From positions 1-18,593 of IMG/VR virus record IMGVR_UViG_2534681832_000034: 18,593 nt of DNA. One strand, written 5' to 3'. Below the pieces are notes generated by a model. It worked only from the letters and a program-made list of their open reading frames with translations, was not told where the DNA came from and did not search any database. The stretch is from a virus (lineage: Duplodnaviria > Heunggongvirae > Uroviricota > Caudoviricetes). A program made the translations under genes and the position numbers. Shown piece by piece: positions 2,000 to 18,593 of the stretch; position 1 is the first letter of the stretch; the number at the start of each line of letters is the position of its first letter.

Positions 2000-2028
2000 C
2001 AGACGTAGTAAGAACCACCAGCATTGTA

Positions 2029-3239: not shown

Positions 3240-3307
3240 AGATAACATTACGCGTCCTGCAAGACGCTTAACATTAATCTGAGGCCATATCTATGCTTAG
3301 CATACGT
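3240..3307 (-). ncRNA. sok: Predicted Sok-like antisense RNA covering the mok start region
   Basis: Minus-strand promoter: -35 TTGACC (plus 3337-3332), 18-bp spacer, -10 TAATCT (plus 3313-3308). The transcript would run antisense across the mok ATG (3293). A stem GCGTC/GACGC at about 3251-3266 is a candidate 3' structure. Ends are approximate. Confidence 0.45.
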
Positions 3308-3499: not shown

Positions 3500-3506
3500 A
3501 AGGTAA
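3351..3506 (+). CDS. hok: Hok/Gef-family type I toxin, 51 aa
   Basis: Translation MKQQKAMLIALIVICLTVIVTALVTRKDLCEVRIRTGQTEVTVFTAYESER matches the Hok family pattern (LIVxCLT...LTRKxLCExRxRxG..EV.AF.AYES). AAGGAG precedes the ATG. The leader (GGTGCTTGAGGC..., TAGCCTCTTACCG, CAAGGAGAAG) resembles the R1 hok mRNA as I remember it. Confidence 0.8.
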   Translation: MKQQKAMLIALIVICLTVIVTALVTRKDLCEVRIRTGQTEVTVFTAYESER

Positions 3507-3577
3507 GAGACCTGGCGGGGAGAGATCTCCGCCACTCTTAGTGTGTCAGGTATCCTCAATGCACCCTTTCATCTCCA

Positions 3578-3606
3578 AATAAAAAAGCTCCCGAAGGAGC
3601 TTTAAA
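3578..3606. terminator. Bidirectional rho-independent terminator (end of minus-strand late operon; probable hok mRNA 3' end)
   Basis: Stem GCTCC (3587-3591), loop CGAA, GGAGC (3596-3600), flanked by A6 upstream and TTT downstream, so the minus-strand transcript ends hairpin + U6. Confidence 0.7.
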
Positions 3607-3622
3607 ATACAAGGGATGACTC

Positions 3623-4132
3623 TTAATCCCACTCAATCCAGTTGTAGACGATACGAAGTGACGGGCGCACAGCGGCAGTCACATCTTCGGTACTAAAGTC
3701 GATTGCATCACTGTAGATTTTGCAGTCCAACATTTCAATTGTTGTAGCAGCTTTTGTTACAGCGTTAACCCCGGAAGATTTGGATTCAGGGGTAGCAGCC
3801 ATCGTGATATCAACATAGTCCTTCGCCGCAATGCGATCCTTGATGAACTGAAGAATATCGCCTTCGATAGTCTCCACGCACTGGACCTGGATTTCCCCAG
3901 AGTTTCGAATTGGTCCGTGCTGGTTGAACTTCACACCATTCGGACCATAGTCCTCCACATCCTCGCGGGTCATTTCAGGAATTTGCGACGTGCGAACCAG
4001 TACGCTGATATCTTCATGGCCTGCAACAGTGAGCTGGAATTCAGAAGATACCAGTCGTTCGCCTTTGGCCGCGTTGGCAGTATAGCGGCCCTTAATAAAT
4101 TTACGGTTTCCCTTAGTGTTATTGTGCCCCAT
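3623..4132 (-). CDS. Late-operon structural/morphogenesis protein, 169 aa (function unassigned)
   Basis: ATG at 4132 (minus) with AAAGGA SD; TAA at 3623-3625; last gene before the terminator. Confidence 0.8.
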   Translation of the reverse strand: MGHNNTKGNRKFIKGRYTANAAKGERLVSSEFQLTVAGHEDISVLVRTSQIPEMTREDVEDYGPNGVKFNQHGPIRNSGEIQVQCVETIEGDILQFIKDRIAAKDYVDITMAATPESKSSGVNAVTKAATTIEMLDCKIYSDAIDFSTEDVTAAVRPSLRIVYNWIEWD

Positions 4133-4143
4133 ATAAAATCCTT

Positions 4144-4725
4144 TTACTGGAACGCCCGAACAATATCGGAGCTGTTATATATCGAAGAACCGGTCAACTG
4201 GAGGTTGACGGTGTTTTTCAGGAAATGCCCATTGCTGTCCCTGGGCGCATCGAGATCGAAACTTATGTCCTGGATAGCGACATCAATGATGTTGATCTGG
4301 CGACCAATGTTTAGCGTCACACGCTCCGGGATTCGACCACCAATACTGGCATCTTTAAGTTCCGGGCTAATCATCGCTGACAATGCGGCGATAGCTCCTG
4401 AAACCTCCGTGAATGGATCAAACAAAGCGATGAAAGTTACTGGCAGCGTGAAAGTTGGCGGTGTTCCCCCCTCCCAAACCATTAAGCTGTTCCAACGGGC
4501 CACCGACGTTGTTTCAGTACCAACCTGCGCAAAACCACTGAAGGCACCAGCAACAGACCCCATGGACATACCGGTAAACGGCGCTTCCCAATTCTGGGCC
4601 ATGTTCATTGCTGCCCCCTGGCTGATATATCCGGTAACCTGGTACTGAGAGTTCGTTAAAGTAACTTTCAGAAATGGCGATACACCGTCAGCCTGGCTGT
4701 AAACCCCATAAGGTATAGGTGCCAT
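4144..4725 (-). CDS. Late-operon structural/morphogenesis protein, 193 aa (function unassigned)
   Basis: ATG at 4725 (minus); Gly/Ala/Ser/Thr-rich composition typical of virion proteins; packed 11 nt upstream of the next gene. Confidence 0.8.
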   Translation of the reverse strand: MAPIPYGVYSQADGVSPFLKVTLTNSQYQVTGYISQGAAMNMAQNWEAPFTGMSMGSVAGAFSGFAQVGTETTSVARWNSLMVWEGGTPPTFTLPVTFIALFDPFTEVSGAIAALSAMISPELKDASIGGRIPERVTLNIGRQINIIDVAIQDISFDLDAPRDSNGHFLKNTVNLQLTGSSIYNSSDIVRAFQ

Positions 4726-4760
4726 TCAAGTTAAAGGCCGGAGTTCTCCGGCCTCCTCCT

Positions 4761-5576
4761 TTAGCCAAGGCGCTTACGGCGCAGTTTCATTGACTTTTTG
4801 CGGGCAAGTTTTGCCGCACCCGTCTGGGCTTTTCGACGCGCTTTTTTCAGCGCCGATTTTTGAGCCGCAGTCAGACGTTTTTTACGCAGGCGTTTACGGA
4901 TGAGTTTGATCTCACCGTTACGAACAACCTTCTTAAATGCTTCAGTCAGCATTTCATCAGAAGTGCCAGCAACAACAAACGCCGCTTCCAGTTCGTCACG
5001 GTCGTCGCTATCTAAACCAGCGATAGAGGCACCAACATCAGCAGCTGCGTCGTCGTCTTCATCGTCAGCCAGTGCTTCGATCAGGTCATCATCTACACCG
5101 CATGCTGCGAGGAAGTCAGCAACATTTGCCCATGCTTCGTTATAGGCATCGTCCTGTTCTTCTGTAACTTCGGAGTCGTCGTCATCAGAGATACCAGCGA
5201 TAGCCTGAACGAAACCATCAAGGGAGTCGAAAGTCAGATCACCGCTATCAGCCCAGGCGAAAACGGCGTCGGCCGCATCACTCAACGCATTCTGCATAGC
5301 ACTTCTATTTGCAGCTTCCAGAATCATCTGGTGCGCCTGTTCGACGGTCCATTCTTTACCGTCTTTCCCTTCCAGGATTTGCTCAGGAGCCGGGGCAGAT
5401 GGAACGTTATCGTTAGTCTGTGCCGCCGGTTCCGGATTATTATTAATAACCGGATCTGTTGGCTGTTCGGCGCTTGCTCGGGCAGACTCCATCAGCTGCA
5501 CAGGATCAGAGTTCAAAGCGAAACGAGACAGTCCATTCCCCAAAAATGCCCCGGATTGAAAAAAGTTTTTGCTCAT
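4761..5576 (-). CDS. Highly acidic protein with poly-basic C-terminal tail, 271 aa (possible scaffold or internal/DNA-associated virion protein)
   Basis: ATG at 5576 (minus) with AAGGGA SD; long Asp/Glu runs (DDDDSEVTEEQDD, DDEDDDAAAD) followed by a C-terminal ~50 aa rich in Lys/Arg. Confidence 0.8.
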   Translation of the reverse strand: MSKNFFQSGAFLGNGLSRFALNSDPVQLMESARASAEQPTDPVINNNPEPAAQTNDNVPSAPAPEQILEGKDGKEWTVEQAHQMILEAANRSAMQNALSDAADAVFAWADSGDLTFDSLDGFVQAIAGISDDDDSEVTEEQDDAYNEAWANVADFLAACGVDDDLIEALADDEDDDAAADVGASIAGLDSDDRDELEAAFVVAGTSDEMLTEAFKKVVRNGEIKLIRKRLRKKRLTAAQKSALKKARRKAQTGAAKLARKKSMKLRRKRLG

Positions 5577-5585
5577 TGTATTCCC

Positions 5586-7175
5586 TTACTTAATAAGCAG
5601 CGGTACGCCCTGGATACGACGGGCTACGCCAGTCGGGCAGCAGGCCCAGACTACTTCCCATTTATCGAATTCCGCCTGCGTAACTTTCAGCACATACGGT
5701 TCTGTACCGTCAGCATCAGGATCACGAGGAGCCACCAGAGCGCCGGAGGCGACAAAGCGATCTAAAAGTTTGGTCATCCCTTTAGTCAGGCCAGCCGCAG
5801 TAATACCGTCCGGGCTATGCTTCATCTGTCGGGCTAACTGGACAAAGAAACGGCTGATTGCATTCATCAGGGATGGGACGTGCTGGAAGTGCAGATAGTT
5901 ATCCTGCGTGCAGCAAGTTAAAGCATCGTCGATGATCATCTGGCCAGAGGTGCCAACAGATACTTTATTGAGACGGCCCTTGACCATTGCTTCTTCGTCC
6001 GGGGTATCTTCCGGATACAGCGGTTGAATTGACGCACGAGCAATGACGGCACGTTCTTCACCAGCCGGTGAGTAATGCCAACCGCCGACATCAGAGTTTT
6101 TCTTGACGCCACGAGCTTTCGCCGCATACGCCACGCCAGACAGACCAAAGACCACACGGGATTGGGTCCATTTGTCTTTGCAGGAGAACGGGTAGTGATA
6201 GACAGCACAGCTTACATAATCGGTACCAAGTAAACCGGTATCTTCAACAGCAGAGAGCGCTTCCGTATACGTCAATGTCGGTTTGACATCAAAGAAGCCA
6301 TCAATCAGGCGATCAGAACAGATATTACCTAACGCGGTGATCGCCGCATTGTCATAGCAACCCAGGCCGAGAACAGCGGTGTACATGTACGGCGCATTGT
6401 TCAGCACCTTAACCGCACGCAGGTACGCAGCGGTTGAGATTTTCGACTGATCACCGTTGGTACCACCAGTGAACGCCAGCGATTTTTTATTTGTTACTTT
6501 CGCCGTCGAAATCAGCTCTTCATTAACAACCGCGCGCAGATATTTAGAACGGGCTTCCAGAGCCGTAGGCAGATAACACAAGCGGCCCATGTCATCTTTC
6601 GCTTCTTCCGCCAAAGACACAGTGTGTGTCTCCAGGGTCGTTACCACGCCGAGCGAAGTCGTCTGGGTCAGTTTTAAGAGGAAGCGTTCATTACCCGCGC
6701 TGTCCGCTGTTGCCGTTTCGATGGTTAACTCACGGGTAGGTGAAATACACGGATCACCATCATCAACGTAGATAGCAAAGGCTTCGCCACTATCAAGTTC
6801 AATTTCAGAACCGTATGGCAACGCACTGTAAGCCGGTTCGCCTGATTCATCGAACATAATAATCGGGAACTTCGCATCATCCGGAACAGCACGAACAACA
6901 TAACCTGACGTTTGCTGAATAGCTTCGTATACATGGCGAATTGGTTCGAACTGTGAGCCGGAAGACGGCTTCAGCGGTTCGCCGAGAACATCTTTGTAAT
7001 TGGACTCAGTAACCGCAAGAACAGTAAACGGCTTGCCACGCGCAAATACGCCAATACCAGCCCACAAGCTGCTATTTAATGCAACACCGGTAGATAACGT
7101 CGAATCGGCATTGATCGGGCTAACCGCGACGCCGGATGCATTACCTAATGACTGTTGAATTGAATATTGAGACAT
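5586..7175 (-). CDS. Large late structural protein, 529 aa (possibly contractile-tail sheath; P1 gene-22-like by position)
   Basis: ATG at 7175 (minus) with AGGGAAAG SD; TAA 5586-5588; composition typical of virion structural proteins. The sheath assignment is a weak guess from position and a C-terminal ...GAL... segment. Confidence 0.8.
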   Translation of the reverse strand: MSQYSIQQSLGNASGVAVSPINADSTLSTGVALNSSLWAGIGVFARGKPFTVLAVTESNYKDVLGEPLKPSSGSQFEPIRHVYEAIQQTSGYVVRAVPDDAKFPIIMFDESGEPAYSALPYGSEIELDSGEAFAIYVDDGDPCISPTRELTIETATADSAGNERFLLKLTQTTSLGVVTTLETHTVSLAEEAKDDMGRLCYLPTALEARSKYLRAVVNEELISTAKVTNKKSLAFTGGTNGDQSKISTAAYLRAVKVLNNAPYMYTAVLGLGCYDNAAITALGNICSDRLIDGFFDVKPTLTYTEALSAVEDTGLLGTDYVSCAVYHYPFSCKDKWTQSRVVFGLSGVAYAAKARGVKKNSDVGGWHYSPAGEERAVIARASIQPLYPEDTPDEEAMVKGRLNKVSVGTSGQMIIDDALTCCTQDNYLHFQHVPSLMNAISRFFVQLARQMKHSPDGITAAGLTKGMTKLLDRFVASGALVAPRDPDADGTEPYVLKVTQAEFDKWEVVWACCPTGVARRIQGVPLLIK

Positions 7176-7190
7176 AACTTTCCCTGTTAT

Positions 7191-7209
7191 GCGCCCCGCA
7201 CGGGGGCGC
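7191..7209 (-). promoter_or_regulatory. GC-rich intercistronic stem-loop without U-tract
   Basis: GCGCCCCG / CGGGGGCGC inverted repeat between the stop of the 7236-8942 gene and the start at 7175. Confidence 0.5.
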
Positions 7210-7235
7210 TATGTTAAACGGAGAACTTCCCCTGA

Positions 7236-8942
7236 TTACTCAGAGTCACCGGCATCAATCGTGTCGCCGCTTATGAAGTTAAGCCCGCCTTTTTTGGCCA
7301 TTGTCAGCGTTACACGAGTGAAGTAATCAGCGCCGTTGCGTGGGTGCATATCGTTGATAGCCGAACCCCACAGTGTGGTACGGTTGACCAGCGCCGGAGT
7401 GGTCGGATGCTGGAACGGGATAGCCGGGACAGCATCACCAGTCACGAAGCCTGCTTTACCCGGATTTTCATCACGGACGTAGCACAGCACATCCATCGAG
7501 CTGAACTGAATGTTCTCTGTCGTTAAGTTCTTACAAATACCAGCAGGTACTTCGTACACTTTCACGTTACCGAACAGGGTACCGATGTAGTGAACATACG
7601 GAGTCTGGATATAGTCTTCGGCTGGCTGGAAGAAATCCTTCGGCAACTGTTTGAAGAAAGATGCTGCATCAGCACCAGCAAACATCCCCATCGCACCAGA
7701 AGATTTAACGCGCTCAATAATGTCGCGATATACAGTCTGGAATTTGCCACGAATGATGGTTGCCCATACATTAAAGGACTGGTTAACCGGCAGAGCGATG
7801 TCAAAGGTGTCGGTCGCAAGAGTACGCCAGATCATGATGCGAAGACGCAGCATATCCTGTTCATGAGACAGGTATTCCTTCAGGGTGCGGAACTGTAGGG
7901 AACCCAGGTCCAGACCAAATTCACGCTGTGCTTCATACGCCGCCTGTACCGTGTGCTCAGCCGCGATAACGAACTGACTTGGGAACAGGGTGTATTTCTT
8001 CATTTCGTGGTTGATCAGCGGGATCAGCTCAGGTGCGGCTTCAATATTGATTTCCGTCTCAATTGCGATCTCAGTGCCTTTATCCGGCGCTTTGGAGAAC
8101 GACAGGGCAATCTGACCAATGTTGTAGTTCAGAGAGCAGGTAACAGTGATTTGCTCACCAGCAGCATTAGTAAACGAGTGAAGTAGGCTGCCGGAACCGT
8201 TATCAACAACAGACTTAATACGGTTAACGTAGATGTTAGTGCGACCTTTTCGGATTGGTACATTCTGGCCTTCGAAGTCTTCCATCTTGAAGGTTGCGGT
8301 TTTGCTGGTGCCATCGGAGCTTGCCACCAGCACATAGCGGCGACGTAACTGGCTGTACACACCAACGGATTGCATGTCCAGAACATCACCAGCAGCATAA
8401 GAACCAAAAGAGGAACCTGCCACGTTAAAGACTTCATAGATGTCGGACTGGTCACGCGTAACCGGAATGAAGGTACACGCATCAGCGGTAGCTGCCCCCA
8501 ACTGAACAGGCAGGATCATCGCGAGGAATAAAGGCAGACGCATAACACCGTCAGAAACGCTCATCATCTCTGCTGCGACGGATTCCAGCATCGCTTTATT
8601 AGTGGCATCCATGCTATTGCGGGTGGACTCAATCAGGCAGTTTTCCAGCGTCTGGTGGCAGGAGGCCAGAATTTCCGGACGCGGCATAGATTTATGTGCT
8701 GCGGCGTAGTCAGCCAGTGCACTTGCCCACGCTGTAGCGATTTGAGCGGTGGCATTATCAGAGATACCCGCAAAAACCGGGTCTTTACGTGCAGCTTCAA
8801 GGATAGATGCGGCACGCGCGGCATCATCTTTAATGAATTGGTTATCAGTACCGAACTGCGCAGTGCTTGCCCAGCCAAGCACAGCTTTAGAGCGTTTTGC
8901 GATATCTGCAATACGATTCTGGTATTCGCGTAAGTTACTCAA
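7236..8942 (-). CDS. Probable major head (capsid) protein precursor with N-terminal helical delta-like region (P1 gene-23-like by position)
   Basis: First gene of the late operon, directly beside parB. Proposed start is TTG at 8942 (minus) with AAGGAAG SD at 6-nt spacing; the ORF track's start at 8963 is also TTG and has no SD. No in-frame ATG for about 90 codons. N-terminal ~140 aa is Ala-rich and helical, then a Gly/Ser/Thr-rich body. Confidence 0.7.
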   Translation of the reverse strand: MSNLREYQNRIADIAKRSKAVLGWASTAQFGTDNQFIKDDAARAASILEAARKDPVFAGISDNATAQIATAWASALADYAAAHKSMPRPEILASCHQTLENCLIESTRNSMDATNKAMLESVAAEMMSVSDGVMRLPLFLAMILPVQLGAATADACTFIPVTRDQSDIYEVFNVAGSSFGSYAAGDVLDMQSVGVYSQLRRRYVLVASSDGTSKTATFKMEDFEGQNVPIRKGRTNIYVNRIKSVVDNGSGSLLHSFTNAAGEQITVTCSLNYNIGQIALSFSKAPDKGTEIAIETEINIEAAPELIPLINHEMKKYTLFPSQFVIAAEHTVQAAYEAQREFGLDLGSLQFRTLKEYLSHEQDMLRLRIMIWRTLATDTFDIALPVNQSFNVWATIIRGKFQTVYRDIIERVKSSGAMGMFAGADAASFFKQLPKDFFQPAEDYIQTPYVHYIGTLFGNVKVYEVPAGICKNLTTENIQFSSMDVLCYVRDENPGKAGFVTGDAVPAIPFQHPTTPALVNRTTLWGSAINDMHPRNGADYFTRVTLTMAKKGGLNFISGDTIDAGDSE

Positions 8943-8993
8943 TTTACTCTTCCTTAAACACAAGGCACTTGTGTGAATCCCTTTTCGGAAGAG

Positions 8994-9022
8994 ATTTTAT
9001 TGAAAGTCACTTGTTGACTTTC
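8994..9022 (-). promoter_or_regulatory. Candidate phage late promoter: -10 TAAAAT plus upstream inverted repeat
   Basis: Minus-strand TAAAAT (plus 8999-8994); inverted repeat GAAAGTCA-N5-TGACTTTC at 9002-9022, centred about 25 bp upstream of the predicted transcription start; no -35 match. Confidence 0.4.
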
Positions 9023-9075
9023 TCGTGACAAGCAATTTTTTATTTTTTCGGGAGTAGGGGAGGAAGGTAAAATCC

Positions 9076-9162
9076 AAGGTGAAATCGTGGCGATTTCACC
9101 TTGAAATTTTAGATGGATTTACTTTAAAAACAGTAGGTTAATAGTGAAATTTGAATGGCGAA
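9076..9162. other. parS: parS partition site (P1-type centromere)
   Basis: Box A heptamers ATTTCAC/GTGAAAT at 9079-9085, 9093-9099 and 9144-9150; box B hexamers TCGCCA (as TGGCGA) at 9088-9093 and 9156-9161; AT-rich central segment consistent with an IHF site; immediately 3' of parB. Confidence 0.85.
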
Positions 9163-9165
9163 AGT

Positions 9166-10167
9166 TTAAGGCTTCGGCTTTTTATCGAGGCTCTTTCTAA
9201 GGATATGCCCAATCATCCTGTCGAGTTCTTCCTGTAGCTCTTTTGAAAGTCGATTAAACTCATAAGAAAATGCACGGCCTTTCACGCGCTTCCTTGCAAA
9301 GCGATCCTTGTCCTCAAATTTCCATAATTCAGTAACTACGGACTTATCTTTAGAACCTTTATCCGTGAGTAGTGAGGCTTCCTTTGTTATCAAGCGCAGG
9401 ATTTTATTTTTAACTTCATCTTCGGCCATTTCTTCAATGGATAAGATGTCGTTTATTTCCGGGGATATGTTTTGAATAAGCTGATCAAACTCTAAATTCT
9501 TGTTCCCCATTTCGTCGCCAACAGCACAAAGCGTTTTGTAGTCCGAAAAGGTTAATTCCGACTGCACAGGGAAAAGGGCGACTAATTCTTCCGGAGCACT
9601 CGCTGCCTGGAGAGCACGCGTGACCTTAGCCTGAGACAGCCCTTCTTTGGCTGCAATATCCTTCTGACTCATCCCATCATTTTTCATTCGCATCAAACGC
9701 AGACCTATTTCTCGAATGCTGTGCTGCAATGCTGTCTGAACGTCTTTCGCTAAATTTTGCGCTTCCTGAACGCTGATCTCCTGGTCCGTGACTAAAACCC
9801 GCAACCCTACGTTCTCTAAGATGGCAGAAGCTCGACGCCGGGAACCATCCAAAATTTCAATTTTCCCTGTACCCCGTCTAACACCTATTGCAGGGTAAAA
9901 TTGCTGATGCTTAATAGTGCTTCGGATACTTTTTAATGATTTTGGCGTAAGAGATGCCTGGTCACGCCCGTTGTTATGCTGATCAACAAAGGTATCGCTT
10001 TCTACCTGGTTCGGAGGTATTACCTCTTCAATAAATGTGGCCTGGCGACCAGTTGATAACTTGAATACCTGCTCGACTCGATCGCCAGAGGCTGAAGAAC
10101 TATCAAATCCGCTTAATATTGAAGGATTAAGGGTTCGCCCAATTGTTGGTCTGTTTTTCTTTGACAT
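9166..10167 (-). CDS. parB: Partition protein ParB, 333 aa
   Basis: ATG at 10167; the length and sequence (MSKKNRPTIGRTLNPSILSG...) match my recollection of P1 ParB; parS lies directly downstream. Confidence 0.95.
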   Translation of the reverse strand: MSKKNRPTIGRTLNPSILSGFDSSSASGDRVEQVFKLSTGRQATFIEEVIPPNQVESDTFVDQHNNGRDQASLTPKSLKSIRSTIKHQQFYPAIGVRRGTGKIEILDGSRRRASAILENVGLRVLVTDQEISVQEAQNLAKDVQTALQHSIREIGLRLMRMKNDGMSQKDIAAKEGLSQAKVTRALQAASAPEELVALFPVQSELTFSDYKTLCAVGDEMGNKNLEFDQLIQNISPEINDILSIEEMAEDEVKNKILRLITKEASLLTDKGSKDKSVVTELWKFEDKDRFARKRVKGRAFSYEFNRLSKELQEELDRMIGHILRKSLDKKPKP

Positions 10168-10183
10168 GGGGGTTTCTTACTCC

Positions 10184-11380
10184 TCAGTTAGATCTGATAA
10201 ATTCAATACGGTCAAAAACTGCTTTAGCAAAATCTTCCGCGGCAATTCGCGCGTTCTTCAATGCATCAGCACTACCAACATACGTTGCCGGGTTAGCTGA
10301 AATAACAGTGTCAAAAGACTCGCCGCAACGTTCAAAACCGTCAAGGCGAGGGAGGACGACATCGAGCATATCCCCACCGAACACTTCTTTAGCCAGGCTA
10401 TGGCAATACTTATGATCTGCCTTGTTACTCAACTTGGACATAAAACCAATGTTAGTCGCAAGCTGGCACTCGCAGCCTTCATCCGAAATGAGTTTCACCA
10501 ACTCAGGAAGGCGGGCAACGTATTTAAGCGATGAGTGGAAATCGACAGTTGCTGGCGGCAGAGGTGTAAACAGTATATTGGCCGAGGCCAAAGCATTTTT
10601 CAGGAAGGCGTCAAGGTGAGGACCACTATCAACGAGGATAAAGTCATAATCGCTCTTCAGCTTATCAATCACATTTTCTTTCAGGACAGCATGGATGTTC
10701 TGACCCGGTAGATGCTCATTGCACAGCTCTCTCCAATCGGATGCAATAAAGGCATCGTCAATCGACGCAGGCATAACGTCAACCCCAGGTACAACAGAAG
10801 GAACAATAAACTCCTCTAACAGCTCTTCACGGCTTACATTCTGCAACATAGCCTGTGCAGATGTTGCGTTTACGATACCAATAGAGTGTTTATGGCTTAA
10901 AAACATCGTTGCTGAAGATTGCGGATCAAGGTCAATAACCAGAATCCTTAAATCTTCCATCAGAAGATGAGGGTGAGCACGCATTGCATGCGCCAGAGAA
11001 ACCGTCGATACAGTTTTTGACACACCGCCTTTAAGATTGGAGATGAAAATCACATACGCTTCGCTGTAGCGATCCCGGTATTTTGGCACTCCGCGATGTT
11101 CATATATGTCAATGATGTTCTGAATTGACATCGCATATTTCATTGAAGAGCCAGCAGGGCGTTTATCGAAAACATAACCCTTTTCTTCCATTTCACTTAC
11201 GGCATAGTCAACGTTCGCTCGAGTCAGTAGAGGCAATTTTGCCAGTGCCGCTTTCGCATAGACCTGGTAAAACTCGTTCGCGTGTAGCTCATCCTTTTGC
11301 AACTGTACTTGTTCAGTCAGAACATTGAGCATTCTGTTTGCTCTTTGAGCAACCTTGTGAAGCTGGCTGGAATCACTCAT
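10184..11380 (-). CDS. parA: Partition ATPase ParA (type Ia, N-terminal DNA-binding extension), 398 aa
   Basis: ATG at 11380 with AAGGATGA SD; deviant Walker A NLKGGVSKT; 398 aa as remembered for P1 ParA. Confidence 0.95.
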   Translation of the reverse strand: MSDSSQLHKVAQRANRMLNVLTEQVQLQKDELHANEFYQVYAKAALAKLPLLTRANVDYAVSEMEEKGYVFDKRPAGSSMKYAMSIQNIIDIYEHRGVPKYRDRYSEAYVIFISNLKGGVSKTVSTVSLAHAMRAHPHLLMEDLRILVIDLDPQSSATMFLSHKHSIGIVNATSAQAMLQNVSREELLEEFIVPSVVPGVDVMPASIDDAFIASDWRELCNEHLPGQNIHAVLKENVIDKLKSDYDFILVDSGPHLDAFLKNALASANILFTPLPPATVDFHSSLKYVARLPELVKLISDEGCECQLATNIGFMSKLSNKADHKYCHSLAKEVFGGDMLDVVLPRLDGFERCGESFDTVISANPATYVGSADALKNARIAAEDFAKAVFDRIEFIRSN

Positions 11381-11500
11381 CGAAAGTCATCCTTTATGCT
11401 GTATTTTTGAATTTAATTAAAAATGCTGCATAAAATAATAATGTATGCGTAGATGCTTGTACATGGCATTCTCTGCATGTTTTGTTCATTTTGCACGATT
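11381..11500 (-). promoter_or_regulatory. par operon promoter/operator region
   Basis: AT-rich region upstream of parA with an imperfect inverted repeat (AAAAATGCTGCAT ... CTGCATGTTTTG), compatible with a ParA autoregulatory operator. Confidence 0.45.
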
Positions 11501-11520
11501 GAGAGTTACAAGAAAGGCAC

Positions 11521-11541
11521 AAAAAAGCCCCGTTCAGGGGC
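11521..11541 (-). terminator. Rho-independent terminator
   Basis: Minus-strand stem GCCCC / GGGGC (loop TGAAC) followed by T6 (plus A6 at 11521-11526), 8 nt after the stop at 11549. Confidence 0.7.
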
Positions 11542-11548
11542 ATCAGTG

Positions 11549-11953
11549 TTATTTGCTAAGAGCAGCGAATAATCGTTCGAAATCGATAGTATCTATAGCA
11601 CGCGTAAGCGCCGGAAGTTCAGCCTCAAAGTACCCGTGTCGATCGTAAAAGAAGGGACCGAAGAGCGAGGCATGTTGGATTCTACTTCGCCCCAGCCCGG
11701 ACACACAGTTAAGCCCATTACCGGCTAAAAGGCTAAAAAACTTCTCTGGATTATCGTGGTAAAGCTGAGAATCAATGGTGGCGGTTAACTCTTCCATAGG
11801 GAAGCACACCCGCCCTGTCTCCCAGGGATATTTAGTCCGAAGCATAAACATTGCTTTCAGCAATTCACATTGAGCGCGGATCGCGTCCGGTTCATAGCCA
11901 GATATGGAGACATAAGCCACGTCCCTCATTCCTGCGTCATCTTTGAAAGTCAC
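11549..11953 (-). CDS. C-terminal portion of the amber-split gene (annotated alone it is a 134-aa ORF with a poor start)
   Basis: No convincing SD at GTG 11953 or ATG 11929; in the same frame as the upstream ORF and separated from it by one TAG; terminator directly after its stop. Confidence 0.5.
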   Translation of the reverse strand: MTFKDDAGMRDVAYVSISGYEPDAIRAQCELLKAMFMLRTKYPWETGRVCFPMEELTATIDSQLYHDNPEKFFSLLAGNGLNCVSGLGRSRIQHASLFGPFFYDRHGYFEAELPALTRAIDTIDFERLFAALSK

Positions 11954-12022
11954 GATAGAAGTAACATCCAGTTCTTTTTCGAAAGAGCGAGCAGCATCTA
12001 CTGGACGCTGAAGTAAATCATT

Positions 12023-12358
12023 CTACTTAATGCGCTCGAGAATCCCTCCCCACATATCATTTAGATATTCGATATGAGCCAAAACCTTATCAAGACACTC
12101 TCGTGTAAACCATTCAGTATGCCCGCCACCGGCGCTTTTCTCCCACGGCGCATTCCAGGGGAAAAAGGTTGCGTGTAAAGCCCGCTCAAGATTAACCATT
12201 GCCAAACGCGTACCACGATAGACCCGTGAAAGCGCAAAATCGGGACTCACTTGTAGCCCTTTAAACCGTGCCAATGGACCACATGAAATGCCGATTTTAA
12301 AAGTATCTCCGTTCTCCGGCACCAGAACGTAGAGGTAGTGTTGTTTCTCTTCTTGCAT
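12023..12358 (-). CDS. GIY-YIG / T5orf172-like domain protein, 111 aa as annotated (ends at an in-frame amber)
   Basis: ATG at 12358; motif HYLYVLVPENGDTFKIGISCGPLARFKGL resembles the GIY-YIG/T5orf172 core; stop is TAG at 12023-12025. Confidence 0.6.
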   Translation of the reverse strand: MQEEKQHYLYVLVPENGDTFKIGISCGPLARFKGLQVSPDFALSRVYRGTRLAMVNLERALHATFFPWNAPWEKSAGGGHTEWFTRECLDKVLAHIEYLNDMWGGILERIK

Positions 12359-12393
12359 ATCAATACCACTGCTTGATGAGAACCGCGCAAATG

Positions 12394-12649
12394 TTGACTA
12401 TGCGCGAAAGTTAATGTGAATAGTTGACTATGCGCGATGTGACTACAGTCAAAAGTTGACTGTAGTCGATTTAACTCCACCAAAGATCGACTATGTAAGA
12501 TATTGTCGGGAGAAACGTTGACTATACGCGATGAAATGACCCTAAAAGCCATCTCAATAGCGACTTGCAGAATATTGACGCCAGCAAAAATCCACCAGCG
12601 TCAACGAATGTCGCCTATAGTCAACTTCTCGCTATCGCATATAGTCAAT
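12394..12649. repeat. incA: incA-like iteron array (about 9-10 RepA-binding repeats, mixed orientation)
   Basis: Repeats of core TTGACTRTRCGCGA and its reverse complement (e.g. 12394-12407, 12424-12437, 12441-12452, 12456-12469, 12518-12531, 12613-12625, 12637-12649), immediately 3' of repA. Confidence 0.8.
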
Positions 12650-12650
12650 A

Positions 12651-13535
12651 TTATGGATTGCGCTTATGGATCTGAAAGCCGATTTTCCTGCCGTTTTTTA
12701 TCTCTGAAAATTTAAGATATTCAATAGCTTCCAAATCTTTCATGGCTTTTCTGATAACGCTATTTTGCACGCTAACGGATGATTTGAGATTAAGCCTTGC
12801 TCTAAGGCGCTCAATGCTGACAGGTGCCGGGTTGGCGGGTAGAGCCTCAAAGAATGTATACAGTACCTTGGCCGTCTCTTTGCGCCCGAGCTTATCCAGC
12901 ATCTTCAGCTTCAGGATTCGCTTATAGTCAACATAGTAAAGTTCAGATAGCTGTTTCTGCGGCTGGATCTCGATAACATCAAGCTCGGTATTCAGGCTGC
13001 TATATGCCAACAAGTTGACGTTAATGTTATTGAGATGACCTTTTGCCGCCGGGAAGCGGAATTTGACAACTGTCTGCTGAATGCGTGTCAGAGAGTCATC
13101 AATACTTTTACGGAACGCCTTTGAAAGGCGCTTACGTGGATAGCCGCATCGATCGGCAAACTCGGAGAATGGCAGGGTGATTATGCCGTCATCATCAGGT
13201 GCGTAGTCAAACAACGCGGAGGTTATGCCCACCCACACCTTAAAATCAGTATCCATATCCAGGCGTGGACCATGAATTTCAATTCCCTCATAGCCTTCCT
13301 GCTCAACAATTTTGAGGCTTGATAGTTCTTCGGTTGCGTTCGTTGTGTTTGTAGTAACTGACGATCCGCGACGTAGTGCCACATTGGTAGATTTTAAGGT
13401 TGGCACAAACACACCTAAGCGCAACAAAGCAATGGGTTGTATAGTGCTATTGTTATTGGGTTTCAGGCTGTGGATTTCTCCTGTATTTCCTGCAACTTCT
13501 TCAACGCTAAGGAAGCCTTTATTTTCTTCCAGCAT
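12651..13535 (-). CDS. repA: Iteron-binding plasmid replication initiator RepA, 294 aa
   Basis: ATG at 13535 with GGAG SD (GGAGAAACCACG-ATG); the ORF track's 13592 start is a TTG lying inside the origin region. Flanked by iteron arrays on both sides. Confidence 0.85.
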   Translation of the reverse strand: MLEENKGFLSVEEVAGNTGEIHSLKPNNNSTIQPIALLRLGVFVPTLKSTNVALRRGSSVTTNTTNATEELSSLKIVEQEGYEGIEIHGPRLDMDTDFKVWVGITSALFDYAPDDDGIITLPFSEFADRCGYPRKRLSKAFRKSIDDSLTRIQQTVVKFRFPAAKGHLNNINVNLLAYSSLNTELDVIEIQPQKQLSELYYVDYKRILKLKMLDKLGRKETAKVLYTFFEALPANPAPVSIERLRARLNLKSSVSVQNSVIRKAMKDLEAIEYLKFSEIKNGRKIGFQIHKRNP

Positions 13536-13582
13536 CGTGGTTTCTCCATATGTGGCGCGGCCTGGCGTCATCTGGATTGCAG

Positions 13583-13826
13583 TTATCAACAACTGTGAAT
13601 AGTCAGGCTCTAAAATCGCGTACAGTCAATGTTTCTGTCGCATATAGTCAACAATAAATCGCGTGCAGTCAACAATAAATCGTGCACAGTCAACATAAAA
13701 TCGCGTATAGTCAATGTTGATCCCATTTCAGGCCAGAAATGGCGCGGCTTACAGCGATCCGGGATCTTCTTTGGATCTTCCTGGGTTCTCTTTAGGATCT
13801 GTTTATTGGATCTATGCTGTGGATAA
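13583..13826. promoter_or_regulatory. Plasmid replication origin: DnaA boxes + iterons + GATC cluster
   Basis: DnaA-box-like TTATCAACA (13583-13591); perfect DnaA box TGTGGATAA (13818-13826); six GATC sites between 13719 and 13812. Confidence 0.75.
13613..13714. repeat. Origin iterons (incC-like): five direct repeats at ~21-bp phasing
   Basis: AAATCGCGTACAGTCAA (13613-13629), CTGTCGCATATAGTCAA, AAATCGCGTGCAGTCAA, AAATCGTGCACAGTCAA, AAATCGCGTATAGTCAA (13698-13714), all in one orientation directly upstream of repA. Confidence 0.85.
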
Positions 13827-13834
13827 GTTGAATA

Positions 13835-13855
13835 AACCGGCCAACATAGCCGGTT
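13835..13855 (-). terminator. Hairpin after the 13869-14261 gene (weak terminator candidate)
   Basis: AACCGGC / GCCGGTT stem with 7-nt loop; the downstream minus-strand sequence is only moderately T-rich. Confidence 0.3.
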
Positions 13856-13868
13856 GGAAGGAAGGGTA

Positions 13869-14261
13869 TTATTCTACGCTTTCGATAAGAAGACCATGTT
13901 CATAACATTTAAGCTCATCGCCTTCGTACAGGAATTGGTATCCAATACCACCATTTTCATGGACATTAGGGAATAACTCATAACTCACTGAAGAGCAAAT
14001 CACACCAATGCAGCGATCAACGCCTTCTCGTTCTTCAGTGCTGAAAAAATCCTCTTCGGTAAGAACATGAGTACATTGCTCATCAGCATAGGTCGGAAAT
14101 ACATGCTCGATGCAATCCGGGTGTTTTAAACCAAGCTGATCGGCAAGCTCGAAAGCATGACGGTATTGTTCAGATCCTGGCTTGCCAACAGTGATGTGCT
14201 CAATTTTGTAGATTGAAGTCGCTTTGTTGATAGTTTGCTTTACTGTTACTTTATCAGACAT
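13869..14261 (-). CDS. Hypothetical protein, 130 aa
   Basis: ATG at 14261 with AAAGGGA SD; stop 13869-13871; 11 nt downstream of the lipoprotein gene. Confidence 0.75.
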   Translation of the reverse strand: MSDKVTVKQTINKATSIYKIEHITVGKPGSEQYRHAFELADQLGLKHPDCIEHVFPTYADEQCTHVLTEEDFFSTEEREGVDRCIGVICSSVSYELFPNVHENGGIGYQFLYEGDELKCYEHGLLIESVE

Positions 14262-14272
14262 AAAAATCCCTT

Positions 14273-14605
14273 TTAGTTACCGCTGATAGCGCGGTTGTAA
14301 TCATTAACGTTGCGATTCTTCCTGTTAATCCCCATCAGCATCGTTTCTGTATCGAGGATATACGCTGGCAGATCATCAAAATATTCACTGCTAAACTCTG
14401 GCATCCTGCACATAAACGCACTTTTGGGGGCAGGGTGGTTAACCTTTGTCGGCGTCGGCGTTAAATTCGCTGATCGACTCCCGGAGCAACCGCTGAGTGT
14501 CAGCAGGAATGCGCTGGCGAACATTACCCGCCGCAACCAGTTGTTTCTGAACTTCAGCTTTTCGTTCCATTTGCCTGTCAGCATATTTGGCTTGTTCTGA
14601 TTCAT
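14273..14605 (-). CDS. Lipoprotein (signal peptidase II lipobox LTLSG-C), start codon ambiguous
   Basis: Lipobox L-T-L-S-G-C with Ser at +2 and a Pro/Thr-rich mature region (TPTPTKVNHPAPK). ATG 14605 has AGGAAG SD; alternative starts at 14584 and 14524. The 5' 167 bp overlap the upstream gene in another frame. Confidence 0.7.
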   Translation of the reverse strand: MNQNKPNMLTGKWNEKLKFRNNWLRRVMFASAFLLTLSGCSGSRSANLTPTPTKVNHPAPKSAFMCRMPEFSSEYFDDLPAYILDTETMLMGINRKNRNVNDYNRAISGN

Positions 14606-14861
14606 TTTTCACTTCCTGGCTGTGAAAATGTTGCTCTGCTTTGTTCATCGTCTCAATGGTCTGGTTAAGATCCATTATTGACTTATCACGTTCCTTAACA
14701 GCCTGATCAAGACTGCCAATTTTCTCCATGGCTTGCTTTAGCTGATGACGTTCCCATGCAAACCCAGCACCAACAAGTGCGCAAATCAGAACAAGAACAC
14801 CAGTAGCAGCAAGTTTCTCCTTCAAAGACAAAGCTGTTTTTAACGTAGAAAAGAATGACAT
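14439..14861 (-). CDS. N-terminally membrane-anchored coiled-coil (periplasmic) protein, 140 aa
   Basis: ATG at 14861 with AGGAGG SD (the ORF track's 14888 start is TTG); one hydrophobic segment (LAATGVLVLICALVGAGFAW) then a charged helical region. Confidence 0.75.
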   Translation of the reverse strand: MSFFSTLKTALSLKEKLAATGVLVLICALVGAGFAWERHQLKQAMEKIGSLDQAVKERDKSIMDLNQTIETMNKAEQHFHSQEVKNESEQAKYADRQMERKAEVQKQLVAAGNVRQRIPADTQRLLRESISEFNADADKG

Positions 14862-15082
14862 GTCTTCCTCCTGAAGAAAAATTATCAATGAAGTCCTTTG
14901 TTACCGTGCCGCTTTGTTTAATTCATCAAGAACAGAATCAGGAACCAAAGCGGCGACTACGCTGGCTGTGCTGGCCTTATTTGCTGATGCTTCCGCAAGC
15001 GCGGTACCGATAGCATGGTTATAAGCAGTGAACCGCCCCGGAAATCCTGGAGACTAAACTCCCTGAGAAAGAGGTAAACAGG

Positions 15083-15409
15083 ATGACTAAAAATACTCGT
15101 TTTTCCCCCGAAGTCCGTCAGCGGGCGATTCGTATGGTTCTGGAAAGTCAGGATGAATATGACTCACAGTGGGCGGCAATTTGTTCCATTGCCCCAAAGA
15201 TTGGCTGTACGCCGGAGACTCTGCGTGTCTGGGTTCGCCAGCATGAGCGGGATACCGGGGGCGGTGATGGTGGGCTCACCAGCGCTGAACGTCAGCGTCT
15301 GAAAGAGCTGGAACGTGAAAATCGTGAACTGCGCCGCAGTAACGATATCCTTCGCCAGGCTTCCGCTTATTTTGCGAAGGCGGAGTTCGACCGCCTCTGG
15401 AAAAAATGA
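15083..15409 (+). CDS. IS3-family transposase OrfA (HTH, leucine-zipper)
   Basis: ATG 15083; [21 protein letters not shown]... typical IS3-family OrfA; ends in the A-run frameshift window. Confidence 0.9.
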
Positions 15410-16296
15410 TGCCACTGCTGGATAAGCTGCGTGAGCAGTACGGGGTCGGACCGGTATGCAGCGAACTGCATATTGCCCCGTCAACGTATTACCATTGTCA
15501 GCAACAGCGACATCATCCGGATAAACGCAGTGCCCGTGCGCAGCACGACGACTGGCTGAAGAGAGAGATACAGCGCGTATACGATGAAAATCATCAGGTG
15601 TACGGTGTGCGTAAAGTCTGGCGTCAGTTGTTACGGGAAGGAATCAGGGTGGCCAGATGTACAGTGGCACGTCTCATGGCGGTTATGGGACTTGCCGGTG
15701 TTCTCCGGGGTAAAAAGGTCCGTACGACCATCAGCCGGAAAGCCGTTGCCGCAGGCGACCGCGTAAACCGTCAGTTCGTGGCAGAACGACCTGACCAGCT
15801 GTGGGTGGCTGATTTTACTTACGTCAGCACATGGCAGGGCTTCGTCTATGTGGCGTTTATCATTGATGTGTTTGCCGGATACATCGTGGGGTGGCGGGTC
15901 TCATCGTCTATGGAAACGACATTCGTGCTGGATGCGCTGGAGCAGGCGTTGTGGGCCCGTCGTCCGTCTGGCACCATCCATCACAGCGATAAAGGCTCTC
16001 AGTATGTGTCACTGGCCTATACGGAGCGACTAAAAGAAGCCGGATTACTGGCATCAACAGGGAGTACAGGCGACTCGTATGACAACGCGATGGCTGAGAG
16101 CATCAATGGTCTTTACAAAGCGGAGGTAATACACCGTAAGAGCTGGAAAAACCGTGCAGAAGTGGAACTGGCCACACTAACGTGGGTGGACTGGTATAAC
16201 AATCGACGATTGCTGGGAAGGCTGGGCCATACTCCTCCGGCAGAAGCAGAAAAAGCTTATTATGCTTCCATCGGAAACGATGATCTGGCAGCCTGA
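15406..16296 (+). CDS. IS3-family transposase OrfB (DDE catalytic domain), expressed as OrfAB by -1 frameshift
   Basis: DDE-type motifs ([23 protein letters not shown]); -1 overlap with orfA at A-AAA-AAT-G (15400-15409). Confidence 0.9.
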
Positions 16297-17010
16297 GTTC
16301 ACAGATAAAACACTCTCCAGGAAACCCGGGGCGGTTCACAGTTATGGCTACGTTGGCGCTTTCATTCGCTCGTTCATACTGCTGTTGTAACGCAGTTGTG
16401 GGTGCTGTTGTCTGGTTGAAAACAACCCCAAACTGTTCAGTTGCTACTTTCAGAGATTCAATTTGCTCTTCTGTTAGTGCTGGTGGGGGAGTGGCAGTGC
16501 CGCCGCCTGAACCAGAGCCTGACGAGCTTTCTGAGCCAGTGTTAAGGGCCTGGTTAATCTCCCCCATTGCAGCGACTAAACTTGATGTATTAAGCGCGTT
16601 AACAGCGTCCTCAAGCGATTTAGTAATATTCACATCACCAATGGCAATAGAGATCGGCAGTTCTGAAACTTCTCGCTCATTAGCACGGCAGTAAACATCC
16701 CAACCAATATCGAGTTGAAGCAGCATTGACAGATCTGCATAACCAGCCAACAGGTCCGCGTGCTTAGTTGCCAGTTCTCCAATGTTCGTTAAGCCGGTTG
16801 TGGTTGTTCTGATCGTTGAAACATAGCTGGTAATAGTGTCGGGATAGACAATTGTATCCAGAATTAATCCGGTCAATTCTTCTGCAAGCAGTTTTGCTGT
16901 GTTAGCACTGTTTCGTGCCGATGTTATGGCACCAGGTGTTTTCATCCCACCGGCGGCGGCCAATTTTTTATATGCGGATAACTGGTAGTCTTTTTCCAGC
17001 ATGATATCTC

Positions 17011-17295
17011 CTAACTTACCTGAACCAGGCCGTCTCCGGACGCTACGGTAGATCCGCATGAAACAGGGTCACCAACGCATACGATCCCTTTACCATTGAC
17101 GGTAAACCATGCCCTGGTTGATATAGCTTGCCCACCGTGCGTACTGTTTCCATCGGTATGCTGTGCATATTGCTTACCATCAACTAACACTTCGACTCCG
17201 TTGACTTTAAGTAGTGGTTCACTCTCTACAGGAGGCCTGGATGGGAATCCTCCGTGCCCCGAACAAATGCTGTCTTTTGTTGCAATGCTTGCCAC
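17011..17295 (-). CDS. PAAR-like (spike-tip type) small protein, 94 aa, GTG start
   Basis: Motifs CSGHGG, STHGGQ and GDPVSCG in a ~95-aa Gly/Val-rich protein resemble PAAR-repeat proteins. No in-frame ATG, so GTG 17295 is the likely start. Stop TAG overlaps the SD of the downstream gene. Confidence 0.55.
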   Translation of the reverse strand: MASIATKDSICSGHGGFPSRPPVESEPLLKVNGVEVLVDGKQYAQHTDGNSTHGGQAISTRAWFTVNGKGIVCVGDPVSCGSTVASGDGLVQVS

Positions 17296-17376
17296 GCCAT
17301 CACCAATTATTTGCTCTGATTTTCGTTATTTTAACTTAGGTTATTTGTGGTCTGTATGGCGTTTACTTATCGCAAA

Positions 17377-17393
17377 ATTGCTCTAATAAATAT
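17377..17393 (+). promoter_or_regulatory. P1 C1-repressor operator-like site upstream of the 17465 operon
   Basis: ATTGCTCTAATAAATAT matches the remembered C1 operator consensus at 16 of 17 positions. Confidence 0.6.
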
Positions 17394-17464
17394 TGTTTTT
17401 TATGTCGTATTTTCGGTACCATTCAGCCATCGCCCTTCAATGGGCATTTGTTTGGAGTCGTCAG

Positions 17465-17749
17465 ATGCAGATGGAGCTAATAAGCCGCAAAGAGTTCGAT
17501 AGCCGTGTAACCAGCGGTGAACTCGACAACTTGCAGGCTATCAAGGTGAAAGAAGGCTTTTGCCTCATTGGGAATCAGAGCGGAATAAATCGCGTTTTTA
17601 TGCTTCGCCGTACGGATTTGAAGCCATTTGTCTGGAAGAACGAAATTGGTCCCAGCTCATACGCTCAAACGAGGGGGTGCCACAACCTGGCCTTTTTCTA
17701 CAAAGACGAGCTTTCTGTGGTTGATATTCAAGGGTTACAACATGTTTAA
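17465..17749 (+). CDS. Hypothetical protein, 94 aa, translationally coupled to the rdgC homologue
   Basis: ATG 17465 with GGAG at 7-nt spacing (the track's 17393 start is TTG within the operator); stop TAA 17747-17749 overlaps the next ATG (ATGTTTAA). Confidence 0.7.
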
Positions 17750-18152
17750 GCACTGGAAAAACATTACTATTTATAAACTTTCTCGTGAGGCGGATCTGAC
17801 CGACTTAGAAGATAAAAAGAAAATGATCCTTTTCACGCCATGCGGTAGTCAGGATATGGCCAAGTTCGGTTTTGTATCGCCATTTGGTGATAATTCTGAA
17901 GTTATCGCTATGCATGGAAATGGTTTTATCCTTGTTGAAGCAAAGCGCGAAACAAAAATTCTTCCCCCGCCGGTTATCCAGCGAGCTATTCAAGAAAAAA
18001 TTGAAAAACTTGAGCAAGAACAAGCGCGTAAACTGAAGAAAACAGAGAAGGACTCCCTGAAAGACGAAGTTCTGCATTCTCTTCTGCCACGGGCTTTTTC
18101 AAAGTTTTCTGTTATCCAGGCGATCTACGACGGTTCATCGATAGGAATTTAA
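17742..18152 (+). pseudogene. rdgC: RdgC-homologue (recombination-associated protein), truncated to 136 aa by mobile-element insertion
   Basis: [16 protein letters not shown]...[13 protein letters not shown]...[52 protein letters not shown] closely parallels the N-terminal ~130 aa of E. coli RdgC (~300 aa); similarity stops at about 18131-18136 and a stop follows 5 codons later. Confidence 0.7.
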
Positions 18153-18593
18153 ATCCCAAAAAGATTAAAAAACACCCAAAAACGGATGTTTATTCAACAC
18201 TGCCTGCGTGCCATGAGTGCACCGCCGTCAATTAAATGGATCTTATCGATTGATACTGCATATCACTGATGGTTTTTTACCCCATTCCCCTGAAAATGGA
18301 CGCAACTTCTCCGATGCGGCTCTCAGCCGCACACCCGCTGTTGCGCCAGTGGCTCATGCATCAGGACCAGCTCTGTCAGACGGTAGCCCCGCTTCAGCCC
18401 CGTAAAACGCATCTGACCTCCGCACAGGATGCACTTCAGCGGGTCAACCTTCAGTAACCGCTGATACATCCCTCTCCACCTGATTTGCATCGCCGTCTTT
18501 CTCACCGTCTCCGTTATGACGTACACAACATCTTCCAGTAACCGGCGCTTCACCGGACTCAGGAAACCGTAGTACCTCACCATACGGAACCCC
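18137..18593 (-). mobile_element. End of an IS91-family (rolling-circle, HUH Y2 transposase) element, partial; continues beyond window
   Basis: Junction lies immediately 3' of GTTC (18133-18136), the tetranucleotide IS91-family elements insert beside; no terminal inverted repeat; transposase 3' end reads toward the junction. Confidence 0.5.
18323..18593 (-). CDS. IS91-family transposase, C-terminal fragment (N-terminus outside window)
   Basis: ORF open to the window edge; ...VRYYGFLSPVKRR... and a CxxCGG motif resemble the IS91/ISCR transposase C-terminus as I remember it; TGA at 18323-18325. Confidence 0.5.
   Translation of the reverse strand, partial: GFRMVRYYGFLSPVKRRLLEDVVYVITETVRKTAMQIRWRGMYQRLLKVDPLKCILCGGQMRFTGLKRGYRLTELVLMHEPLAQQRVCG

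Follow-up and report, generated by a model that had tools for sequence, protein, structure and literature searches.

Why would two genes with the layout of a phage spanin lie beside the replication origin of a plasmid? In the 18,593-nt stretch of viral DNA analyzed here (IMG/VR record IMGVR_UViG_2534681832_000034, positions 1 to 18,593; hereafter the window), a first-pass annotation had picked out a membrane-anchored protein and a lipoprotein gene that overlaps it out of frame, and had compared them with the overlapped i-spanin/o-spanin pairs of phage lysis. We recovered both open reading frames, at 14439..14861 and 14273..14605, and found that they are encoded on the minus strand, which that annotation had not given. 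We estimate a probability of about 85% that they constitute a two-component spanin of the overlapped layout, carried by a P1-like phage-plasmid, with disruption of the outer membrane as the predicted function. Topology signals, a +1 overlap, conservation of both frames, PHROG family matches and the similarity of the lipoprotein to P2 LysC together support the spanin reading.

By sequence identity, we assign the two genes as ppfA and mlp of a P1-like phage-plasmid. A 616-bp segment spanning the pair is 98.9% identical to ppfA/mlp of P1 and P7 and 100% identical to Escherichia phage vB_EcoM-Ro157c2YLVW. In P1 and P7 the proteins (PpfA, gp064; Mlp, gp063) have the same lengths, overlap, lipobox and neighbors as the pair here. 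Relative to P1, PpfA differs at a single residue (M45 here, I45 in P1) and Mlp at two signal-peptide residues (N7 and A32 here, S7 and V32 in P1), and identity across P1-type phage records is 99-100% for PpfA and 97-100% for Mlp. The surroundings agree with this assignment: the window keeps the P1 gene order upfC-upfB-ppfA-mlp-upfA-oriR-repA-incA-parA-parB-parS-23-22-21, it contains tail sheath, capsid, parAB and repA genes as well as oriR, and 91% of its length aligns to the Ro157c2YLVW phage at 99.2% identity. Based on the shared gene order and this identity, we take the window to be part of a P1-like phage-plasmid.

The co-oriented upfA gene (13869..14261, minus strand; phrog_1453, unknown function) lies 11 nt downstream of mlp and does not consistently accompany the pair: in relatives its slot is replaced or empty. 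Five origin iterons with 21-bp spacing (13611..13718, without strand assignment) precede repA at the position of P1 oriR/incC and represent the plasmid origin that the first-pass annotation had mentioned. Compared with P1 and P7, this copy resides in a P1-like element of the alternative replicon type and has an IS3-family insertion sequence (15030..16338, plus strand), delimited by synteny breakpoints against P1 and matching NCBIfam transpos_IS3 at 2.9e-94. This element interrupts upfB, lies 168 nt ahead of the ppfA start codon and is part of the context, outside the spanin pair.

Scans of viral contigs and genome contigs returned almost exclusively near-identical P1-like loci. A tblastn search of PpfA and Mlp against 50,697 phage records likewise matched P1-like phages only, so no lysis-cassette context could be obtained from it. 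Among plasmids, we rejected the idea that the pair occurs as an orphan on ordinary conjugative plasmids: an initial count of 3106 records fell to 651 when the query was limited to the spanin genes, and 532 of these were non-mobilizable. The surplus in the initial count probably arose because its query included 51 bp of IS sequence. Plasmid records carrying the pair were mostly ~72-100 kb among the matches listed.

The upstream gene, ppfA (14439..14861, minus strand), is predicted to encode the i-spanin on the basis of its ORF and translation, P1 match, phrog_89 match, AlphaFold2 model and heptad pattern. It extends from an ATG at 14861 to a stop codon at 14439-14441, encodes 140 aa, and is preceded at a distance of 5 nt by the Shine-Dalgarno sequence AGGAGG (14867..14872, minus strand), which is kept in all relatives. 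Its product contains one hydrophobic segment, residues 17-35 (Kyte-Doolittle maximum of 2.35 in a 19-residue window), corresponding to a transmembrane anchor encoded by approximately nt 14757-14813 and followed by a periplasmic part of 104 aa in which 36% of residues are charged. The sole cysteine of PpfA falls within the membrane segment, and the periplasmic part is Cys-free. AlphaFold2, run on a shallow alignment of 13 sequences (mean pLDDT 70), modeled a continuous helix over residues 13-110 and another over 120-139, with the segment 111-119 (AAGNVRQRIP) as a break between them. The N-terminal anchor and charged helical domain that had been described for this gene are thus both present in the predictions.

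We also found coiled-coil propensity in this protein, the lack of which had been named in advance as evidence against a spanin. Five consecutive heptads run without a break through residues 38-72 of PpfA, and 9 of their 10 a/d positions are hydrophobic; when the periplasmic domain was shuffled 5000 times, only 42 sequences did as well. An i-spanin is recognized by a single N-terminal TMD, an N-in/C-out orientation and a mostly alpha-helical periplasmic domain, and PpfA is predicted to combine all of these. We found no solved structures related to PpfA or Mlp.

The downstream gene, mlp (14273..14605, minus strand), is the predicted o-spanin precursor, as judged from its ORF, its match to phrog_30284, BLASTP against P2 LysC and comparison with relatives. 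It encodes 110 aa between an ATG at 14605 and a stop at 14273-14275 and is read in the +1 frame relative to ppfA. The gene therefore starts inside ppfA and out of frame, as had been reported, creating a dual-coding overlap of 167 nt (14439..14605, minus strand) in which divergence from relatives is reduced. The lipobox, LSGC, occupies codons 37-40 (nt 14486-14497); the codon for the lipobox Cys40 (14486-14488) lies within the ppfA overlap and is followed by Ser at +2, in agreement with the first-pass annotation, and Gly at +3. As Mlp has Ser at +2 and lacks the Asp+2 signal for inner-membrane retention, sorting to the outer membrane is predicted. By sequence, Mlp accordingly shows the lipobox and cysteine without Asp+2 that define an o-spanin.

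Mature Mlp consists of 71 aa and has a single further cysteine, at residue 66. The description of this region as Pro-rich holds for the N-terminal linker, where 4 prolines occur in the first 21 residues (TPTPTKVNHPAP), but not for the mature part as a whole, which has 6 Pro in 71 residues compared to 10 in 40 for lambda Rz1. A two-component spanin is expected to offer one or more periplasmic cysteines for disulfides between molecules, and 507 of 528 pairs do so; here this residue is Mlp Cys66, present in every relative and matched by a Cys in the alignment to P2 LysC. Spanin genes are also expected to be adjacent, and these two overlap by 167 nt, or by 98 nt if translation of mlp begins at the TTG at 14536.

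This choice of start codon affects the signal peptide. The first ATG (14605) is preceded at 6 nt by a Shine-Dalgarno-like AGGAAG (14612..14617, minus strand), a site likewise marked in Table S1 of Kongari et al. and occupied by AGGAGG in diverged relatives, and the position of this ATG is kept within one codon in 7 of 7 sequences. It yields an unusually long signal peptide of 39 residues, marked as 'too long' by Kongari et al. (PMC6139136), and this length is a point against the spanin reading. Comparison of the ORF with relatives and alignment to P2 LysC revealed an alternative in-frame start, a TTG at 14534..14536 (minus strand), 16 codons ahead of the lipobox Cys, that would give a canonical 16-aa signal peptide. 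The codon is TTG here and in P1, ATG in four of five diverged relatives and missing in JK004, and it aligns exactly with Met1 of P2 LysC; no Shine-Dalgarno sequence was found upstream of the TTG. Because the lipobox Cys codon lies within the overlap, all possible lipoprotein starts are inside ppfA, which excludes a start downstream of the overlap, the finding that had been named in advance as evidence against a spanin. The overlapped layout is independent of the choice, since the ATG and the TTG both lie in ppfA and lead to an identical mature Mlp.

We then compared both proteins with phage protein families. PpfA matches phrog_89 ('Rz-like spanin') at 1.2e-25 over almost its full length, and Mlp matches phrog_30284, also labeled 'Rz-like spanin', at 2.2e-77; P2 LysB and LysC match these same two families at 5.8e-61 and 5.4e-4, respectively. 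Direct comparison of Mlp to P2 LysC by BLASTP (5e-8) gave 37% identity over 68 residues including the lipobox region and the second Cys, and the two proteins have in common the lipobox region, a PTP motif, the second cysteine in a C-x-MP context and a DL-A motif. From this similarity we conclude that Mlp and the P2 o-spanin LysC are distant homologues.

The corresponding comparison for PpfA and P2 LysB detected no significant similarity by BLASTP (E 57) or by hhalign with a shallow profile (probability 1%), so PHROG clustering is the one link between these two proteins. Scores against the curated NCBIfam models TIGR03495 (phage_LysB; 19.0 bits against a cut-off of 92.75) and NF038368 (P2_Rz1; 14.3 bits against 27) fell far below threshold, and the pair is therefore better described as a distant relative of LysB/LysC than as a member of the curated families. 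Neither PpfA nor Mlp had a Pfam match above threshold. The missing direct similarity to LysB, the low curated scores and the empty Pfam result all count against the spanin reading.

To see how the two frames evolve, we used five diverged relatives with PpfA identities of 59-63%, namely Cronobacter phage JK004 and four P1-like contigs obtained via exact-protein look-up. Database names for the proteins of the four contigs point to Salmonella, Klebsiella and Cronobacter hosts. The +1 mlp ORF is open in all five (109-110 aa), with its start at the same place within one codon and preceded by AGGAGG. Their lipoboxes read LSAC, LNGC or LNAC, each in register at the Cys and the +2 Ser, two residues that are kept in six other sequences; the h-region is also conserved in the five relatives, as is the FMCRMPE motif that contains the second Cys of Mlp (5 of 5). 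Where mlp extends past ppfA, pN (0.12-0.18) is well below pS (0.52-0.84), and dN/dS outside the overlap is ~0.10-0.14 where computable. Nucleotide divergence from the relatives is 0.21-0.24 in the overlap versus 0.38-0.41 in the ppfA-only part, and PpfA identity is 67-78% at residues 87-140 versus 48-55% at residues 1-85. This substitution pattern supports dual coding of the overlap. Judged from these alignments, purifying selection acts on both the ppfA and the mlp frame, and the lipoprotein ORF is not a chance ORF.

In the literature, ppfA/mlp is already catalogued as a predicted two-component spanin of the overlapped type. Kongari et al. 2018 (PMC6139136, Table S1) list P1 gp064/gp063 as an 'ovl' spanin pair in its own family, 'P1', with an N-terminal anchor segment of 36 residues (to the TMD end), a 104-aa periplasmic domain, a 71-aa mature lipoprotein, one periplasmic Cys and LipoP cleavage after residue 39; the sequences, ribosome-binding sites and segment lengths in that table agree with those found here. 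Bednarek et al. 2022 (PMC9025707) name ppfA and mlp as the spanin genes of P1 and place their operon apart from the other lysis genes, with lyz-lydD-lydE, lydA-lydB, lydC and ppfA-mlp at separate places; they attribute the identification, made on predicted features, to Summer et al. 2007. The first-pass annotation was right to place the pair next to the plasmid origin and apart from the lysis genes, an arrangement already published as a peculiarity of P1. In the Bednarek article and in a table of a 2025 preprint the two roles are swapped, with ppfA given as the o-spanin and mlp as the i-spanin, contrary to the sequence.

Further published data bear on conservation and phenotype. Among 77 P1-like phage-plasmids, mlp and ppfA belong to the 21 most conserved genes, and the repA-upfA region is variable (PMC9603915). 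CRISPRi knock-down in P1 found both genes non-essential for plating, with EOP values of 0.24 and 0.19 for mlp and 1.3 and 1.2 for ppfA, and lambda Rz essential in the same study (PMC10695390); the P1 result is a counterpoint to the spanin reading. As a pair from a textbook phage that is already catalogued as a spanin, ppfA/mlp offers little discovery value. What our comparisons add is the conservation of the mlp frame in five relatives, including both Cys residues, the dN/dS estimates and the homology between Mlp and LysC.

Under the lambda Rz/Rz1 model, inner-membrane PpfA would bind to lipidated, outer-membrane Mlp, each through its periplasmic C-terminal part, and the complex would bridge both membranes through the peptidoglycan mesh. 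Mlp may form a dimer through its single conserved periplasmic Cys66. The complex would be harmless while restrained by the mesh, until the holin LydA and the SAR-endolysin Lyz destroy the wall; it could then collapse, fuse the two membranes and clear the last barrier to phage release. PpfA-Mlp binding, dimerization through Cys66 and membrane fusion are all carried over by analogy from lambda (PMC6139136). A spanin that is inert until the wall is degraded would have no need of a location in a lysis cassette, which would explain the site beside upfA-oriR-repA.

A spanin is expected to be expressed late, during the lytic cycle. The P1 record has 11 annotated late promoters, none of which serves the ppfA/mlp operon, and predicts only sigma-70 promoters for ppfA; our generic sigma-70 scan upstream of ppfA found nothing convincing. 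We built a weight matrix from 10 annotated P1 late promoters (a 9-bp box with consensus AAGTGACTT, 4 nt, and a -10 hexamer), which highlighted a weak late-promoter-like site at 14881..14899 (minus strand; AAAGGACTT-catt-GATAAT) in the 38-nt spacer from the upfB stop to ppfA. The site scores 9.8 bits, ranks 28th in the P1 genome, and carries a G where 10 of 10 annotated P1 late promoters carry T; leave-one-out scores for 9 of those 10 promoters are 13.5-20.6 bits. In two relatives the orthologous site has the exact AAGTGACTT box at the same spacing and reaches 17.8 bits, and in the other three it scores 12.9, 9.8 and 6.9 bits. We regard the site as a candidate promoter only, and its weakness here, together with the lack of an annotated P1 late promoter for the operon, speaks against the spanin reading.

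A tentative suggestion, which we think rather doubtful, is that the P1-type spanin pair has its own Lpa-dependent late promoter in the upfB-ppfA spacer, matching the consensus in some P1-like elements and departing from it in P1 and the window. Here the IS3-family element would separate the pair from promoters farther upstream, and not from this candidate site. Expression values for mlp and ppfA in the supplementary tables of a 2025 P1vir preprint are near zero and uninformative on timing. If the pair does have its own late promoter, then the lack of a plating phenotype under CRISPRi would imply either that the P1 spanin is weakly expressed or that, on plates, P1 has no need of it to breach the outer membrane. 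A bolder and less likely idea has the plasmid prophage expressing the pair as well, for an envelope function outside lysis.

A rival explanation is an envelope module that has nothing to do with lysis: sigma-70 promoters would drive it in the plasmid prophage, and, as with other prophage lipoproteins, its role would be in lysogenic conversion or superinfection exclusion. The absence of a plating phenotype on knock-down (PMC10695390) would suit such a module, as would the prediction of sigma-70 promoters only, the plasmid-maintenance surroundings (oriR, repA, parAB) distant from lyz and lydAB, and the labels first given in the annotation of P1 ('membrane lipoprotein precursor', 'possible periplasmic function'). 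We nevertheless consider it improbable, given that a type II helical anchor protein paired with a +1-frame outer-membrane lipoprotein is the signature of a spanin, that the Mlp homologue LysC belongs to a lysis cassette in P2, and that PpfA and Mlp both fall in PHROG spanin families. In addition, the operon begins with the PAAR-like virion gene upfC, which suggests lytic-cycle expression.

In shaken cultures, a spanin defect shows as delayed or incomplete lysis. This argues against another explanation, that PpfA and Mlp modulate the timing of lysis and do not disrupt the outer membrane. Timing was the first phenotype assigned to P2 lysB/lysC, which are still annotated in the P2 record as 'nonessential; affects timing of lysis' and 'regulation of lysis', and the P1 mlp note says likewise 'by homology'; in later work, however, LysB/LysC became a paradigm spanin pair (PMC6139136), and we give lysis timing a slightly smaller chance still than the envelope module. 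It is hardly credible that ppfA alone is real, with the +1 ORF as a by-product and a 46-aa non-overlapping fragment as the true downstream gene. Gene callers (PGAP and others) do annotate a 46-52-aa remnant of mlp or nothing after ppfA, and as a result mlp is still missed or shortened in hundreds of P1-like phage-plasmids, but such callers have a known bias against overlapped o-spanin genes (PMC6139136). The full mlp ORF is kept in five relatives along with its Shine-Dalgarno start, lipobox Cys and h-region, and the similarity to P2 LysC takes in the region ahead of the 46-aa fragment, so we disfavor this explanation.

The two-component spanin is thus the reading that we prefer, and it can be placed among known systems. 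P2 lysB/lysC encode proteins of 141 and 96 aa, compared to 140 and 110 aa here, and are also overlapped in the +1 frame, by 146 nt versus 167 nt. The P2 genes directly follow the holin and endolysin genes in the Y-K-lysA-lysB-lysC cassette, whereas the P1 pair is unlinked.

Lambda Rz/Rz1, the experimentally characterized prototype, is an embedded pair: Rz1 is fully contained in Rz, whereas Mlp reaches 166 nt past ppfA in an overlapped arrangement. Rz has type II topology in the inner membrane and a hinge between its helical periplasmic segments, as predicted for PpfA, and Rz1 is a +1-frame outer-membrane lipoprotein, as predicted for Mlp; periplasmic Cys residues are available for homodimer disulfides in lambda and likewise in the P1 pair (PMC6139136), although Rz has two of them and PpfA none. 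The lambda proteins have no sequence similarity to PpfA/Mlp and belong to phrog_13 and phrog_3198, the latter (lambda Rz1) matched by Mlp only marginally, at 0.058. The spanin genes of T4, PseT.3/PseT.2, are separated and non-overlapping and have no sequence similarity to ppfA/mlp, yet, as in P1, they are located apart from the holin and endolysin genes, demonstrating that linkage to these genes is not required (PMC6139136).

Two recent P1 papers (PMC9025707 and a 2025 preprint) call ppfA the o-spanin and mlp, the gene that overlaps it, the i-spanin. The sequences show the reverse of these labels, with ppfA as the predicted i-spanin and mlp as the predicted o-spanin. Annotation pipelines shorten mlp (window 14273-14605) to an ORF of 46-52 aa or leave it out: among the P1-like elements compared with the window, one locus (L001) has an annotated mlp remnant at 9474-9614 and another (L093) has no annotated feature at the place of mlp, between 14757 and 14935.

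The gene slot 3' of mlp is variable (window 13869-14261; ~4600-4966 in the relatives L089-L092). It is occupied by upfA in P1 and the window and by a Phage_gp49_66-family gene in L089, L091 and L092, and it is empty in L090. At the other end, the first gene of the upfC-upfB-ppfA-mlp-upfA block, whose genes all point the same way, upfC (17011-17295, minus strand), is PAAR-like, matching the NCBIfam model T6SS_PAAR_dom at 4.5e-9, under the model cut-off. This resemblance suggests that a tail-spike tip protein is encoded together with the spanin genes.

Within the block, upfB is interrupted by a 1309-bp IS3-family insertion sequence (15030-16338) that carries orfA (15083-15409) and orfB (15406-16296), both on the plus strand, and is flanked by a duplication of 4 P1 bases, one copy on each side. 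The insertion left a 3' remnant of upfB (15029-14901) immediately upstream of ppfA. P1 synteny stops within hrdC/rdgC, at 18137, and the stretch at ~18138-18593 matches regions that carry an IS91-family transposase annotation in numerous E. coli plasmids. Taken with the IS3-family element, this match indicates at least two IS insertions in the P1-like element of the window.

We scored late-promoter-like sites with a matrix derived from 10 annotated P1 late promoters. An exact AAGTGACTT box at 2039-2047 on the minus strand, followed by 4 nt and CAGCAT, reached 19.2 bits, on par with the annotated P1 late promoters. The site, located at the 5' end of repL, is oriented antisense into kilA; its P1 counterpart (NC_005856 position 50744, minus strand) is unannotated. 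A second site, in the upfB-ppfA spacer (14881-14899, minus strand), is weak at 9.8 bits in both the window and P1. Its orthologue in each of two diverged P1-like elements is canonical at 17.8 bits and is found just upstream of position 4001 (L090 and L092).

Between parA and repA, the GIY-YIG nuclease gene is broken into three ORFs (11549-11953, 12023-12358 and 12247-12552), whereas in phage vB_EcoM-Ro157c2YLVW, a close relative, it is whole at 810 nt; the window copy is probably a pseudogene. The replicon (11480-13731) gave no match to P1 by megablast and differs from that of P1, encoding a different RepA (12651-13535, or ending at 13592) beside five origin iterons with 21-bp spacing (13611-13718) and an inverted iteron set (12388-12650). 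This divergence is consistent with reports that P1-like phage-plasmids have two replicon types.
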